IMG/VR virus record: IMGVR_UViG_2606217103_000006
Length of the DNA: 46,471 nucleotides
Source of the DNA: a virus
Lineage: Duplodnaviria > Heunggongvirae > Uroviricota > Caudoviricetes
Reading direction: 5' to 3' (one strand)
Shown here: piece after piece, positions 37,287 through 38,870 of the stretch
How positions within the stretch are numbered: position 1 is the stretch's first letter
How the letters are laid out: each line of letters starts with the position of its first letter
Notes under the pieces: generated by a model
Seen by the model: only the letters and a program-made list of their open reading frames with translations
Told to the model about the DNA's origin: nothing
Database searches by the model: none
Position numbers and translations under genes: made by a program

Positions 37287-37315
37287 TTGCAATAAAAATA
37301 GCAAACGTGTATAAA
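37287..37315 (+). promoter_or_regulatory. sigma70-like promoter for the kinase operon (-35 TTGCAA, 17 nt, -10 TATAAA)
   Basis: Sequence match only; followed by strong SD AAGGAGG and a 12-codon uORF (37328-37366). Confidence 0.45.
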
Positions 37316-37375
37316 AGGAGGTAATGCATGTTTTTCCAGTCTTATCAATCCATTACTGAGAGTTAAGGGGGCGCC

Positions 37376-38170
37376 GTGGATCGGTGCGGTAATTATTTAC
37401 TTAAAGATGGTCGCAGTTTAGGACAAGGGAGTTTTGGCGAAGTATTTAAGGTTGATGTCTATAACTTAACCCAGACCCACATGACCACATATGCTCGCAA
37501 ATACTTTTCACCTTGCCCGGACTTTGACAAGACCGCTATAAAAGAGTTGACTGATTTAAGACAGCGTTTTTTAGTTGAGATCAAAACACAATGCACTCTC
37601 AATAGAATAAACTATGATTCAATAGCGCCAATAGTTTTATTTAATACAAATGGTGATAAACCTTATTTTGTTATGGAATTGGCAGAGTGTAACTTATATG
37701 AAGCCATCCGCAATGGTATGAATTACGCGGAGAGGAAGTCTGCTGTTACTCAGATTTTAAAAGGAATTATCACCATACATGAAAACAACTATATACATCG
37801 TGATTTAAAACCAGGAAACATACTTTATTATGCCGATGGAAAGTATAAAATATCTGATTTTGGTCTAGTAAAAGACAGAGATACCTTACGGGCCGAAATC
37901 AAAACAAAATTTAAGCCTAATCACATGGGCACAGATGGATATCGAGCACCCGAAATACATGATAGCGGTCTTTTTTCTTTTCAAAGCGACATATTTGCAG
38001 CAGGTAAAATTATCACTGATATATATCCCACAGAAAGAAGTGAAAAATTAAAAAGATTGATTGCAAAATGTTGCGCACATTGGCCTGAAGAACGATATCA
38101 AAGCACACGGGAGTTACTGGAAGATTTTTTAAAAGTGACGGGGGAGGTAAATCATGAAGAACATAATTGA
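37376..38170 (+). CDS. Hanks-type (eukaryotic-like) Ser/Thr protein kinase, kinase domain only
   Basis: GTG start with RBS AAGGGGG; G-loop LGQGSFGEV, YARK lysine, HRDLKPGNI, DFG, GYRAPE, SDIFAAG subdomains all present. Confidence 0.85.
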   Translation: MDRCGNYLLKDGRSLGQGSFGEVFKVDVYNLTQTHMTTYARKYFSPCPDFDKTAIKELTDLRQRFLVEIKTQCTLNRINYDSIAPIVLFNTNGDKPYFVMELAECNLYEAIRNGMNYAERKSAVTQILKGIITIHENNYIHRDLKPGNILYYADGKYKISDFGLVKDRDTLRAEIKTKFKPNHMGTDGYRAPEIHDSGLFSFQSDIFAAGKIITDIYPTERSEKLKRLIAKCCAHWPEERYQSTRELLEDFLKVTGEVNHEEHN

Positions 38171-38870
38171 AATGGCATGTTTTAGCCTAAAACAACCCCA
38201 AAAAAAAGAAAATGAAGACTTTTATTTACCGCCATCTTTTGATAGCGATTTTAACATTGTCTTTGCAGTAGCTGATGGGGTTGGTTCCTCTGAACATTCA
38301 ATGCTTGCATCTCATGCAGCCATTCGTGGCATTAGACACACGCTAGGCACTTCCTTTTTCTCAATTGAAAGTGCATTTCATTCAGCTAAAAAAGAAATTG
38401 ACAATTTAGATATTAGCACTGCCACAACCTTAACAATTGTTCAGATCAAAAAAAATGAAGTGTTAATTGGTCATTCCGGTGATTGCCGAGTATACTTCAA
38501 TAAAAACAATAAACTAAATCAGTTAACCACTGATCAAACGAGATATCAAGAACTCCTTGATTCTGGTGAACATAAATTACGTAATTTAAGAAATCATAAA
38601 GAACGGCTATCTTCAGTCCTAACGAATGCTTTATCAAATACAACGGATTTGAATTTTGAGTTAATGTCTTTTCCGATTAGCCAGCTAATTTATAATGGCT
38701 ATCTTCAACTCTATGCAATGACTGATGGTGCCTATAAGCATTGGGATGTCAGACCAAGGTTTTCTGAGAAGACAATGCTCTCACCAACAGCTTTTGCGAG
38801 TAGTTTAAGAAAAAGGATTGAGAAAAATATAATGGATGATTACACCTTTATAGGCGTAAAAGTAACCTAA
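38154..38870 (+). CDS. PP2C/PPM-family Ser/Thr phosphatase
   Basis: Motifs FAVADGVGS, GHSGDCRVY, MTDGAY, DDYT; overlaps kinase 3' end by 17 bp. Confidence 0.8.
   Translation: MKNIIEMACFSLKQPQKKENEDFYLPPSFDSDFNIVFAVADGVGSSEHSMLASHAAIRGIRHTLGTSFFSIESAFHSAKKEIDNLDISTATTLTIVQIKKNEVLIGHSGDCRVYFNKNNKLNQLTTDQTRYQELLDSGEHKLRNLRNHKERLSSVLTNALSNTTDLNFELMSFPISQLIYNGYLQLYAMTDGAYKHWDVRPRFSEKTMLSPTAFASSLRKRIEKNIMDDYTFIGVKVT

Follow-up and report, generated by a model that had tools for sequence, protein, structure and literature searches.

A two-gene kinase–phosphatase module in a Qin-like Escherichia coli prophage: a mobile candidate for a minimal toxin/antidote defence unit

Introduction

Anti-phage modules that combine Ser/Thr protein kinases with a PP2C phosphatase are already known. 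The KKP system (PfpC-PfkB-PfkA), carried by Pf6 and by P2-, P4- and Mu-like prophages (Guo et al., Nat Commun 2024, PMC11341870), consists of three genes in the order phosphatase–kinase–kinase. The PfkA-type kinase has a C-terminal cold-shock domain (CSD) and the PfkB-type kinase a C-terminal FHA domain, and both kinases are needed for toxicity (PMC11341870). The PP2C neutralises this toxicity, the system defends against T phages, and its trigger is a phage protein able to inhibit the phosphatase; Gp59 of T4 binds PfpC (PMC11341870). KKP has a second function in the control of Pf lysogeny, which it exerts by phosphorylation of MvaU (PMC11341870). The other known module, TerY-P, is described in the account given in PMC10542128 as a triad of the vWA protein TerY, a PP2C phosphatase and a Ser/Thr kinase (Anantharaman 2012; Gao 2020), the kinase having a C-terminal OB-fold or zinc ribbon; according to the same account, the triad works as a stand-alone anti-phage system (Gao et al. 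2020).

The locus described here lies in a 46,471-nucleotide stretch of DNA from a tailed phage (IMG/VR record IMGVR_UViG_2606217103_000006), the whole of which is referred to as the window. Whereas KKP has three genes in the order P-K-K, this locus has two in the order K-P, encoding a single bare kinase of 264 aa and a phosphatase of 238 aa. A sequence-only reading of the window had known of no described two-gene arrangement of this kind in this position. Since KKP and TerY-P have both been reported, it should rather be seen as a variant than as a new kind of system. The two-gene family itself did not turn up in DefensePredictor or in a modularity-network preprint, and literature searches, which included RefSeq accessions and covered kinase/PP2C defence and toxin-antitoxin systems, found neither a paper on it nor functional, toxicity or plaque data.

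Kinases have also been linked to phage defence as single genes. PD-T4-6 is reportedly a single-gene Ser/Thr kinase defence, Stk2 is said to be a defence kinase of Staphylococcus, and Stk of the lambdoid prophage 933W reportedly aborts superinfection. In addition, PknB/PstP, Stk1/Stp1 and other Hanks kinase/PP2C pairs of bacteria serve as housekeeping regulators.

A low-GC cassette in the nin region

The element that hosts the pair is a Qin-like E. coli prophage. The relevant features are as follows.

36811..37135, minus strand: hok/mok/sok type I toxin-antitoxin, a divergent neighbour given for context, outside the module
37183..39038, no strand assigned: cargo cassette, low in GC (1.86 kb, ~35% GC), in or replacing a variable slot that runs from hok/sok to the DUF7167 gene block
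37287..37315, plus strand: promoter-like element, TTGCAA, 17 nt, TATAAA, with TG before it, read by eye
37296..38868, plus strand: core mobile module in common with P4-like satellites, an 80-nt leader and both genes
37328..37366, plus strand: 12-codon uORF (MFFQSYQSITES) behind a strong AAGGAGG, doubtful as a functional feature
37376..38170, plus strand: Hanks-type Ser/Thr protein kinase of the RD class in minimal form, GTG start, 264 aa, presumed toxin/effector
38154..38870, plus strand: Ser/Thr phosphatase (PPM/PP2C) of 238 aa, ATG start preceded at 6 nt by GGAGG, presumed antidote/reset
38913..38941, plus strand: 10-bp GC-rich hairpin 3' of the PP2C stop, no U-tract

The borders of the cassette are set by homology to phage vB_EcoS-813R8, which ends at 37182 and restarts at 39039. 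Related phages have other small ORFs at this place, and in K-12 Qin the syntenic slot is occupied by the relBE toxin-antitoxin. The GC content of the pair is 34–37%, against about 47–57% in the flanking DNA, and the pair is antisense to every flanking phage gene. Along the minus strand come replication genes, DUF977, methyltransferase, Ea22-like, DUF7167, the pair, hokD, DUF968, RusA and Q, an order that agrees with the nin-region location proposed from the sequence. Next to the pair are a hok/mok ORF at 36811-37023 (minus strand), annotated as hokD in a near-identical record, and a match to the sok RNA (Rfam RF01794) at 36961-37135 with 103 bits. The AT-rich composition, the opposite orientation and the hok neighbour were thus all read correctly from the sequence. 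The same is true of the proposal that the pair is a moron and not a core phage function: the cassette is discrete and low in GC, it is rare in E. coli, and elsewhere its relatives occupy unrelated accessory slots.

The signals around the genes are less clear. The 12-codon uORF, the GTG start of the kinase and the promoter-like hexamers are all visible, as the sequence-only reading had it, but the promoter and the Shine-Dalgarno (SD)-driven uORF are incompatible with each other: the -10 hexamer abuts and overlaps the SD of the uORF (37316-22), and a transcript from that promoter would lack the SD. The promoter-like element is absent from the output of a consensus promoter scan, and its GTGTATAAAA stretch is kept in the copy found in a P4-like satellite. 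The SD is not conserved even in this closest homologous cassette, where a similar uORF peptide can be read but has a GTG start and no SD. The uORF was accordingly rejected as a family feature, being only partly kept in the 80%-identical P4 copy and absent in distant relatives. RNA structure in the leader is not significant (z=+0.85), and the sole structure shared there, a small hairpin, surrounds the GTG start of the kinase and lies partly in the coding sequence. Downstream of the pair, positions 38871-38960 have a predicted fold of -21.3 kcal/mol (z=-2.6). The hairpin at 38913..38941 was not listed by a terminator scan; it could possibly serve as a transcription stop or insulator.

A bare kinase and a bare phosphatase

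The 264-aa ORF contains the catalytic motifs LGQGSFGEV, YARK, HRDLKPGNI, DFG and APE that had been pointed out in it, and matches the Pfam Pkinase family (PF00069) with E=1.4e-31. HRDLKPGN and GTxxYxAPE are signatures of Ser/Thr-type kinases. In an alignment of 25 relatives, G16, G18 and G21, K42, E68 (in alpha-C), H141-R142-D143, N148, D161-F162-G163, A191-P192-E193 and R240 show little or no variation. The AlphaFold2 model (pLDDT 86.6) matches kinase domains in Foldseek at a TM of about 0.7 and has the eukaryotic protein kinase fold; its activation loop, which carries a conserved Thr near residue 177, is disordered at 170-178. By motif, profile and fold, the protein is a Hanks-type Ser/Thr protein kinase. 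It falls in phrog_2361, and members of the family are 255–265 aa long. Pfam found no domain besides the kinase domain in the 264 aa, in line with the earlier description of a kinase that lacks sensor and regulatory domains, and there is no C-terminal extension.

The phosphatase ORF starts within the end of the kinase ORF, with an overlap of 17 nt. Its product matches PF13672 (PP2C_2) with E=1.4e-10 in Pfam, so that the profile searches called for in the sequence-only reading have placed both proteins in the families expected, and the metal-binding motifs of PP2C are where that reading put them: D22, D41-G42, G109-D110, D127, D191-G192 and D228-D229 do not vary among 29 relatives. The AlphaFold2 model (pLDDT 93.9) superposes over its full length on PstP, MsPP, tPphA and Stp1 with TM values of 0.72–0.78. 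Metal-coordinating Asp motifs and fold together identify the protein as a PPM/PP2C phosphatase (PF13672/PF00481), and it has no extra domain in its 238 aa. The NCBIfam Stp1/IreP model also matches, with E=8.6e-19, which is under the equivalog cut-off of that model. Judged from sequences and models, both enzymes look catalytically competent.

Comparison with described systems

The window pair resembles KKP in being borne by prophages and satellites, in combining Hanks-type Ser/Thr kinase with a PF13672 PP2C, and in the types of hotspot in which its family is found, including the psu-int locus of P4. It differs in that there is no second kinase in the cassette or its flanks, and in that Pfam detected neither a CSD nor an FHA domain in the 264-aa kinase. 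Since both KKP kinases with their CSD and FHA domains are required for toxicity, a bare kinase may lack the reach over substrates that toxicity would demand. The gene order, with the presumed toxin first, is the reverse of that in KKP and in most type II toxin-antitoxin systems. A direct comparison was possible with a phosphatase–kinase–kinase locus in a P2 prophage of E. coli S40, which has the KKP layout and encodes proteins of 388, 354 and 355 aa; this P2-borne variant is present in 14 complete E. coli genomes. The window PP2C is 25% identical to the S40 PP2C over 142 aa (E=0.001), and the window kinase is 30–33% identical to the two S40 kinases (E=1e-12 and 6e-9). At the sequence level, this is similarity between members of the same superfamilies only. 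Pfam reported neither CSD nor FHA in the S40-locus kinases at E<=0.01.

With TerY-P, the pair shares the joint encoding of a kinase and a PP2C phosphatase, but the third gene, TerY with its vWA domain, and the OB-fold or zinc ribbon of the kinase are missing. There is no vWA ORF within 35000-41500.

Among the PADLOC models, defence kinases gave the best scores to the kinase domain: mad6 1e-37, PD-T4-6 1e-32 and Stk2 3e-25. The PD-T4-6 and Stk2 matches span only the kinase-domain part of the profiles (e.g., 16-202 of 327 and 162-360 of 500). The mad6 match covers positions 54-246 of a 659-position profile, the NCBIfam MAD6 score of 70.6 stays below the cut-off of 460, and the surroundings of the pair lack the further mad genes that a multi-gene methylation-associated defence (MADS) locus would contain. 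No PADLOC model matched the phosphatase. PD-T4-6 and Stk2 are eukaryote-like kinases, as is the window kinase, and act in phage defence, but they are single genes for larger proteins (profiles of 290–550 aa) with no obligate phosphatase, whereas in the window family a phosphatase adjoins the kinase in every locus examined. It should be kept in mind, with regard to a defence role, that what the PADLOC kinase matches cover is the generic kinase domain.

The 933W kinase, which had been put forward as a precedent, is not detectably related to the window kinase. The 933W genome (AF125520.1) was part of the phage collection searched by tblastn and is not among the 35 records matched at E<=1e-3. Moreover, Stk is a single gene and the window kinase is half of a two-gene unit. 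A location of Stk beside hok, considered as a further parallel, was discarded, the neighbours of hokW being unrelated hypothetical genes.

PknB/PstP, Stk1/Stp1 and PrkC/PrpC belong to the same two enzyme superfamilies as the window pair. However, the kinases of these pairs are membrane-anchored and have PASTA sensors, and their genes are chromosomal, conserved and usually preceded by that of the phosphatase, all of which sets them apart from the pair. The NCBIfam scores fall far short of the housekeeping equivalog cut-offs as well (89 vs 450 for the kinase, 68 vs 230 for the phosphatase). What these pairs do suggest is a biochemical logic: an RD kinase shut off by its own PP2C through dephosphorylation of the activation loop is likely here by analogy.

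Linkage, mobility and distribution

How constant is the pairing? Viral contigs were surveyed with the phosphatase alignment, which is more specific than that of the kinase; a profile search of genome contigs with the kinase alignment gave mostly generic kinases, the locus L003 being the sole apparent family member among the matches listed. A kinase relative is found directly upstream of the phosphatase and on the same strand in all 80 of the 80 IMG/VR loci retrieved, most of which have a 4-nt overlap between the genes, and the linkage is kept down to about 33% identity. The same order occurs in every other locus examined, and the contigs in the kinase match list are those in the phosphatase match list. 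The family is compact: in a profile search, roughly 20 clusters at 50% identity were set apart from generic PP2Cs. Kinase and phosphatase identities correlate with a Spearman rho of 0.48 overall and 0.27 below 90% identity, values that are weak as a sign of co-evolution because most loci lie in a narrow 30–40% band; strict adjacency was therefore used as the evidence for linkage.

Damaged copies exist on both sides. In six viral loci (L117, L122, L131 and L160-L162), the phosphatase is intact and the kinase ORF beside it is truncated or could not be recovered. The reverse is seen once, in the near-identical copy L115, where the kinase is intact and the phosphatase has two 1-nt indels; if the toxin/antidote model held strictly, this combination should kill the cell, unless the indels stem from errors in sequencing. 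An asymmetry between the two kinds of pseudogene was dropped as a test of toxin-antitoxin behaviour, the counts being too small and blurred by contig ends and, possibly, by errors in the sequences. One family member (P0235) has the PP2C fused to an HNH_2 nuclease, with a 252-aa kinase still ahead, an architecture typical of conflict systems. Two other apparent fusions were rejected: P0258 is a tandem PP2C and not a kinase–phosphatase fusion, and P0334 is a generic PP2C-PknB-PASTA protein outside the family.

The neighbourhood survey proposed earlier was carried out, and the pair is not a fixed part of one operon: the neighbours are not conserved. Upstream are Rz/LysC (12 of 53), Q, CI-type repressors, N or psu, and downstream the small terminase, HNH, holin or integrase genes, positions that are classic slots for morons and immunity regions. 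No third gene travelling with the pair is conserved among the neighbours surveyed; downstream ORFs of ~205–226 aa in Vibrio and Dickeya, which had seemed candidates, are unrelated to each other. The adjoining CI-type repressor or N genes in several viral contigs could mean that the pair has nothing to do with defence and instead maintains the prophage or controls lysogeny, either by addiction or by tuning induction through reversible phosphorylation of a nucleoid protein or a phage regulator. The adjoining hok/sok, the use of the slot by relBE in Qin and the role of KKP in governing Pf lysogeny (PMC11341870) point the same way. Against this, the module is carried without any lysogeny circuit by non-phage islands and a small mobilisable element, and no conserved partner or target gene accompanies it; addiction and defence are, besides, compatible with each other. 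On balance, a purely maintenance or lysogeny role appears unlikely.

The closest relative outside lambdoid prophages is in a P4-like satellite, at the psu-int locus, with 84% and 82% amino-acid identity for the kinase and the phosphatase. The homology to this copy (L083, 7920-9492) amounts to 80% nucleotide identity and runs from about 80 nt before the GTG to the PP2C stop. Measured against the satellite copy, dN/dS comes to 0.066 (kinase) and 0.077 (phosphatase), with dS at about 1.2–1.4. Strong purifying selection thus acts on the two genes, which are not chance ORFs. Relatives are found on mobile elements of Vibrio, Xenorhabdus, Acinetobacter, Dickeya and Pantoea, as well as in non-phage chromosomal islands and one small mobilisable element. 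The pair is an autonomous mobile two-gene module that moves between phages, satellites and islands of gamma-proteobacteria.

Within E. coli, the pair is present in 35 complete genomes, 33 of 5,426 with the lambdoid type and 2 with the P4 type; the flanks of the hokD-DUF7167 slot occur in roughly 4,600 E. coli records. The lambdoid copy is mainly found in the STEC serogroups O157:H7, O145:H28, O103:H2, O121 and O45:H2 and in porcine ETEC. This host range could reflect lysogenic conversion, in which the pair would act as a signalling system that alters the physiology of STEC and ETEC (stress tolerance, persistence, biofilm or virulence) with no part in conflicts between phages; the regulatory work of PknB/PstP and Stk1/Stp1 would be the model. 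That explanation is very improbable: the hosts of the relatives listed above share no niche, the kinase has no sensor domain by which to receive an environmental signal, and the hotspot locations suggest conflict between elements.

Several phages have the pair in the orientation of their late genes, between Q or Rz and the lysis or terminase genes (Q-K-P-lysis in phiES15, Rz-K-P-terS in Flotzy and in a prophage of Xenorhabdus), so that it may be made in lytic growth and work on behalf of the phage. The kinase would then phosphorylate host proteins, defence systems among them, with the phosphatase limiting self-damage or resetting the host. There is precedent in the T7 kinase, whose promiscuous phosphorylation broadly disarms host defences (PMC13645617). 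The window pair, however, runs against the early-right operon behind a promoter-like element of its own, which puts it outside the lytic transcription programme. Copies in the defence hotspots of P4 satellites, in a mobilisable island and in islands of the chromosome also speak against a take-over or counter-defence function, as does the constantly coupled phosphatase, which would cancel the effect of such a kinase. We regard this possibility as quite unlikely.

A possible toxin/antidote mechanism

The explanation to which we would give about an even chance is that the pair is a phosphorylation-based toxin/antidote (type VII-like) system acting by abortive infection or superinfection exclusion. 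The genes have the arrangement by which toxin-antitoxin systems are recognised, being adjacent, on mobile DNA and strictly co-inherited. A toxin/antidote function is favoured by the hok/sok flank and by relBE in the same slot of Qin, which would fit an addiction role equally, and a defence function by the close relative at psu-int, since this locus of P4 satellites is an experimentally validated anti-phage hotspot (PMC9122126). The weak GTG of the kinase, followed by the strong SD and ATG of the overlapping phosphatase, would favour an excess of antidote. The idea of a phosphatase as antidote has its experimental precedent in KKP (PMC11341870). Also in favour are the intact catalytic residues and folds of both enzymes, the purifying selection, the absence of any other conserved gene, the top PADLOC scores with defence kinases and the HNH_2 fusion. 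Counting against the explanation are the lack of a PADLOC match for the phosphatase, the generic nature of the kinase matches, the co-orientation with late genes in several phages, the L115 copy, the bareness of the kinase and the toxin-first gene order.

How might such a system work? By analogy with KKP and PknB/PstP, we infer a toxic kinase, an antidote role for the phosphatase, a phage-borne trigger and a defence phenotype. In the lysogen, the module would be transcribed from its own promoter. The kinase, made from its weak start codon, would activate itself by autophosphorylation of the activation loop, probably at the conserved Thr, and the translationally coupled phosphatase would constantly undo the phosphorylation of the kinase and its substrates, leaving the cell unharmed. 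An infecting phage would reduce phosphatase activity, either through a phosphatase-binding protein, as with T4 Gp59 and PfpC, or through host shut-off. The runaway kinase would then phosphorylate essential host and/or phage proteins, so that growth is arrested and phage production blocked. The same logic would also make the pair a maintenance (addiction) module.

In a more specific form, a bare kinase and a bare PP2C would by themselves make up a complete minimal anti-phage immune system, the phosphatase being the guarded sensor, inactivated by phage proteins, and the kinase a promiscuous effector. As part of this proposal, the module would pass, across the gamma-proteobacteria, between the lambdoid prophages found in STEC and ETEC strains, P4 satellites, temperate phages (P2-like and others) and islands that can be mobilised. 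The prospects for this form are somewhat short of even.

Implications

The two-gene K-P module is most likely a relative or variant of the published KKP-like kinase–phosphatase systems. If it is a defence or toxin/antidote system, then immunity by phosphorylation needs no second kinase, no CSD, FHA or OB domains and no vWA partner, and the pair would be a very small and tractable model in which to ask how an unregulated eukaryote-like kinase is silenced, what sets it off and through which phosphorylations in the host a phage is stopped. If, on the other hand, the kinase serves the phage, the counter-defence idea derived from the T7 kinase would be extended to temperate phages. The presence of the pair in prophages of pathogens (O157:H7, O145:H28, O103:H2, O121 and porcine ETEC) could affect superinfection of these strains and the outcome of phage therapy.

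A cargo cassette in a mosaic prophage

The window is a complete Qin/lambda-like prophage whose phage genes all lie on the minus strand. From 33938 to 42804 it is 99.5% identical to the prophage adjoining ompW in E. coli NZ_CP180600; outside that segment the identity is only 80-98%, and the window is therefore a mosaic. Between hok/mok/sok and a DUF7167 gene, a kinase gene and a PP2C phosphatase gene run on the plus strand.

Features in and around the kinase-phosphatase pair
36811-37023, minus strand: hok/mok ORF (ORF call)
36961-37135: sok (Rfam RF01794, 103 bits)
37287-37315, plus strand: promoter-like TTGCAA-17 nt-TATAAA (from the sequence)
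37328-37366, plus strand: 12-codon uORF with its AAGGAGG (from the sequence)
37376-38170, plus strand: ORF 1, kinase, GTG start, 264 aa
38154-38870, plus strand: ORF 2, phosphatase, ATG start, 238 aa, 17-nt overlap with ORF 1
39130-39303, minus strand: DUF7167 gene

Read from right to left, the gene order is replication protein, DUF977, methyltransferase, Ea22-like, DUF7167, the pair, hokD, DUF968, RusA and Q; the sequence-only reading was therefore correct in placing the pair in the nin region, on the opposite strand and next to hok. It had also called the pair AT-rich, and GC content is indeed 34-37% across it versus about 47-57% in the DNA to its left and right. The match to the related phage vB_EcoS-813R8 ends at 37182 and resumes at 39039, with other small ORFs between the matching flanks in that phage. 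By this comparison the pair is a discrete cargo cassette, and its earlier description as a moron rather than a core function holds, since it is replaced in vB_EcoS-813R8 and is mobile across unrelated contexts. Spanning the right cassette boundary, just past the DUF7167 gene, is a 34-aa ORF (39024-39128, minus strand) that looks like a truncated remnant of a longer small gene found in related phages. Only the C-terminal 66 residues of a 135-aa ORF (36366-36773, minus strand) match phage family phrog_1212; its true start is probably internal, because RefSeq annotates a 92-aa protein in a near-identical record.

At a threshold of at least 85% identity, the pair was found in none of 50,697 deposited phages and in 33 of 5,426 complete E. 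coli genomes, always in the same context. The carriers are largely O157:H7, O145:H28, O103:H2, O121 and O45:H2 strains, together with porcine ETEC. K-12 Qin (L105) has a backbone in common with the window (Q, ydfU/DUF968, rem, hokD ... dicC, dicA, ydfABC, dicB), and the gene pair adjoining hokD there is the relBE toxin-antitoxin (L105 5120-5873). Since relBE occupies this slot in Qin and an intact hok/mok/sok type I toxin-antitoxin directly adjoins the cassette (36811-37135), Qin-like prophages may repeatedly carry toxin-antitoxin or defence cargo at the hokD-adjacent position.

The same prophage has a second opposite-strand cargo at 25106-26735, between the small terminase and lysis genes. 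It encodes a 355-aa Beta_protein (PF14350, 8e-56) that also matches the PADLOC models PD-Lambda-2_C (4e-32) and "beta", and its gene runs into the end of a minus-strand ORF of 206 aa matching the PADLOC model "cll" (4e-31). The otherwise closest genome lacks this stretch, which may be a further defence candidate. In the closest genome (L001), IS1 is inserted between the methylase region and Q (L001 8172-8939, versus window 33938-33948); this insertion is missing from the window. Downstream of the Q gene lies a DNA methylase ORF (32479-33537), adjoined by tRNA-Arg(TCG) and tRNA-Met(CAT) (32279-32438, minus strand), beyond which is an SASA/DUF1737 esterase gene (28881-30749); this layout is typical of Stx-type late regions.

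Two enzymes and their expression signals

The kinase matches Pfam Pkinase (E=1.4e-31), and no other domain was found in its 264 residues by Pfam search. Its Gly-loop, K42, E68, H141-R142-D143, N148, D161-F162-G163, A191-P192-E193 and R240 are invariant or nearly so in an alignment of 25 relatives, in agreement with the original description of a Hanks kinase with full catalytic signatures and no sensor domain. The motifs HRDLKPGN and GTDGYRAPE are the Ser/Thr-type versions, and because Arg precedes the catalytic Asp this is an RD kinase; such kinases are normally switched on via activation-loop phosphorylation. The kinase fold in the AlphaFold2 model (pLDDT 86.6) is canonical, and disorder is confined to the C-terminal tail and the activation loop (170-178).

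The phosphatase, likewise recognized as a PPM/PP2C protein from sequence alone, matches PF13672 (E=1.4e-10) and the NCBIfam Stp1/IreP model (E=8.6e-19, far below that model's equivalog cut-off), so that profile searches place both proteins in the expected families. The metal-binding residues D22, D41-G42, G109-D110, D127, D191-G192 and D228-D229 are invariant in 29 relatives, and the model (pLDDT 93.9) superposes over its full length on PstP, MsPP, tPphA and Stp1 (TM 0.72-0.78). With these residues kept and the models matching known folds, both proteins look catalytically competent. The phosphatase also matches positions 273-517 of the 565-position PHROG profile phrog_5650 ("unknown function"), which may therefore include longer or fused proteins.

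The kinase family is sharply bounded, consisting of 255-265-aa proteins from gamma-proteobacteria, with scores falling at its edge from about 1e-34 to 1e-19. Its counterpart, the phosphatase family, parallels it and is encoded on the same contigs, and a profile search of 1.84 billion representatives returned roughly 20 clusters at 50% identity set apart from generic PP2Cs.

How is the pair expressed? The kinase GTG start, which recurs in the P4, Xenorhabdus, Vibrio and Acinetobacter homologues, stands behind AAGGGGG; a good GGAGG lies 6 nt ahead of the phosphatase ATG, within the end of the kinase gene. Both the promoter and the uORF proposed earlier have matching sequence elements, but a consensus promoter scan did not return the 37287-37315 element, and this element ends one base ahead of the uORF's SD, so that a transcript from there would lack it. 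The closest homologous cassette keeps the GTGTATAAAA stretch but has lost the uORF SD, which makes the promoter the more likely real element of the two and leaves the uORF doubtful. A 10-bp hairpin without a U-tract (z=-2.6) lies 3' of the phosphatase stop.

A mobile two-gene module

The phosphatase alignment, scanned against IMG/VR, picked out 134 confirmed loci, of which 80 were retained. In every one of the 80, the gene directly upstream encodes a kinase relative on the same strand, usually with a 4-nt overlap; this remains so down to about 33% identity. The contexts are mutually unrelated.

Contexts of the pair
P4-like satellites, psu-int locus: 80% nt identity over exactly 37296-38868 (leader and both genes), 84%/82% aa identity
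Vibrio: in an integrase/Mob_Pre island
Xenorhabdus prophage and phage Flotzy: between Rz and HNH/terminase
Cronobacter phage phiES15: between Q and lysis genes
P2-like prophages: at the end
Dickeya: adjoining a YafO toxin-antitoxin
Acinetobacter: at a chromosomal site

Among 53-55 dereplicated viral loci, the gene upstream is Rz/LysC in 12, Q in 4 and a CI-type repressor in 4-7, or else N or psu; downstream lies small terminase/DUF1441, HNH, holin or integrase. No other gene is conserved beside the pair. The two genes thus stay together amid unrelated flanks rather than forming a fixed part of a larger operon, and they make up an autonomous, mobile module. Compared with the P4 copy, the kinase has a dN/dS of 0.066 and the phosphatase one of 0.077.

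Variants occur. In the viral contigs L160-L162 a 237-aa phosphatase is intact and the upstream kinase ORF is cut to 83-91 aa (252 aa in the related L159); kinase ORFs are shortened or unrecoverable in L117, L122 and L131. A 45-53%-identical subfamily in Pantoea, E. coli CP056642 and an Enterobacter P2-like prophage end (L100 9558-10486, L188 7772-8700, L189 7776-8712) always has two unannotated opposite-strand genes just downstream (214-240 aa and 81 aa), a possible additional component that is absent from the window. Two metagenomic loci (L192 1175-3065, L193 115-2005) encode a 252-aa kinase and, after it, a 371-aa PP2C with a C-terminal HNH_2 nuclease domain, a fusion that fits a role in conflict systems.

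Proposed function and relation to known systems

Why would prophages and satellites carry such a module? Experiments have shown the psu-int locus to be a reservoir of anti-phage systems (PMC9122126), and the other sites are places where temperate phages classically carry morons or immunity-region genes. In KKP, published in 2024 and the nearest system with a known function, two kinases are jointly toxic and a PP2C phosphatase neutralizes both through dephosphorylation; the system defends against T-phages and is triggered by T4 Gp59, which inhibits the phosphatase (PMC11341870). By analogy with KKP and with PknB/PstP logic, there is about an even chance that the pair is a toxin/antidote abortive-infection system. 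The RD kinase, translated from a weak start codon, would auto-activate, the co-translated phosphatase would restrain it, and phage-induced loss of phosphatase activity would lead to promiscuous phosphorylation and growth arrest; that the kinase is toxic and the phosphatase its antidote, and what the trigger and phenotype would be, we infer from the analogy. In L115 (4461-5172) the whole cassette recurs at 99.5% identity, with the kinase intact and the phosphatase frameshifted by two single-base indels; unless this stems from sequencing error, it runs counter to a strict toxin/antidote model.

One unlikely alternative is that the pair serves prophage maintenance or lysogeny control. Less likely still is a phage-serving kinase for take-over or counter-defence in the manner of T7 kinase: the late-operon orientation of the pair in some phages speaks for it, while the antisense arrangement with its own putative promoter here, and the non-phage contexts, speak against it. 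A host-physiology conversion function seems the least probable of these.

As an abortive-infection system the pair would work like KKP without being a member, since it differs from KKP in gene number and gene order and lacks the defining CSD/FHA kinase architectures, and an E. coli P2-prophage phosphatase-kinase-kinase locus shares only 25-33% domain-level identity with it. TerY-P was rejected, as both the vWA gene and the OB-fold or zinc-ribbon kinase are missing. The PADLOC profiles mad6, PD-T4-6 and Stk2 match the kinase over the kinase domain only, and no PADLOC profile matches the phosphatase; 933W Stk, offered earlier as a precedent, has no detectable relation to the kinase. RefSeq names for both proteins are generic only, and a literature search found no paper on the two-gene family. 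The supplementary hotspot table of Rousset et al. has a "Pkinase + PP2C_2" entry; only a "phosphatase + kinase + kinase" system was cloned for testing.

The pair noticed in the sequence-only reading is thus real and was well observed: a self-contained, widely mobile, uncharacterised kinase-PP2C module. It is a two-gene variation on a known prophage kinase/phosphatase defence theme rather than a separate kind of system, and after KKP it will not greatly surprise the specialist. Its minimal make-up, clean family boundaries and presence in prophages of major pathogens nevertheless make it attractive as a candidate that can be tested directly.
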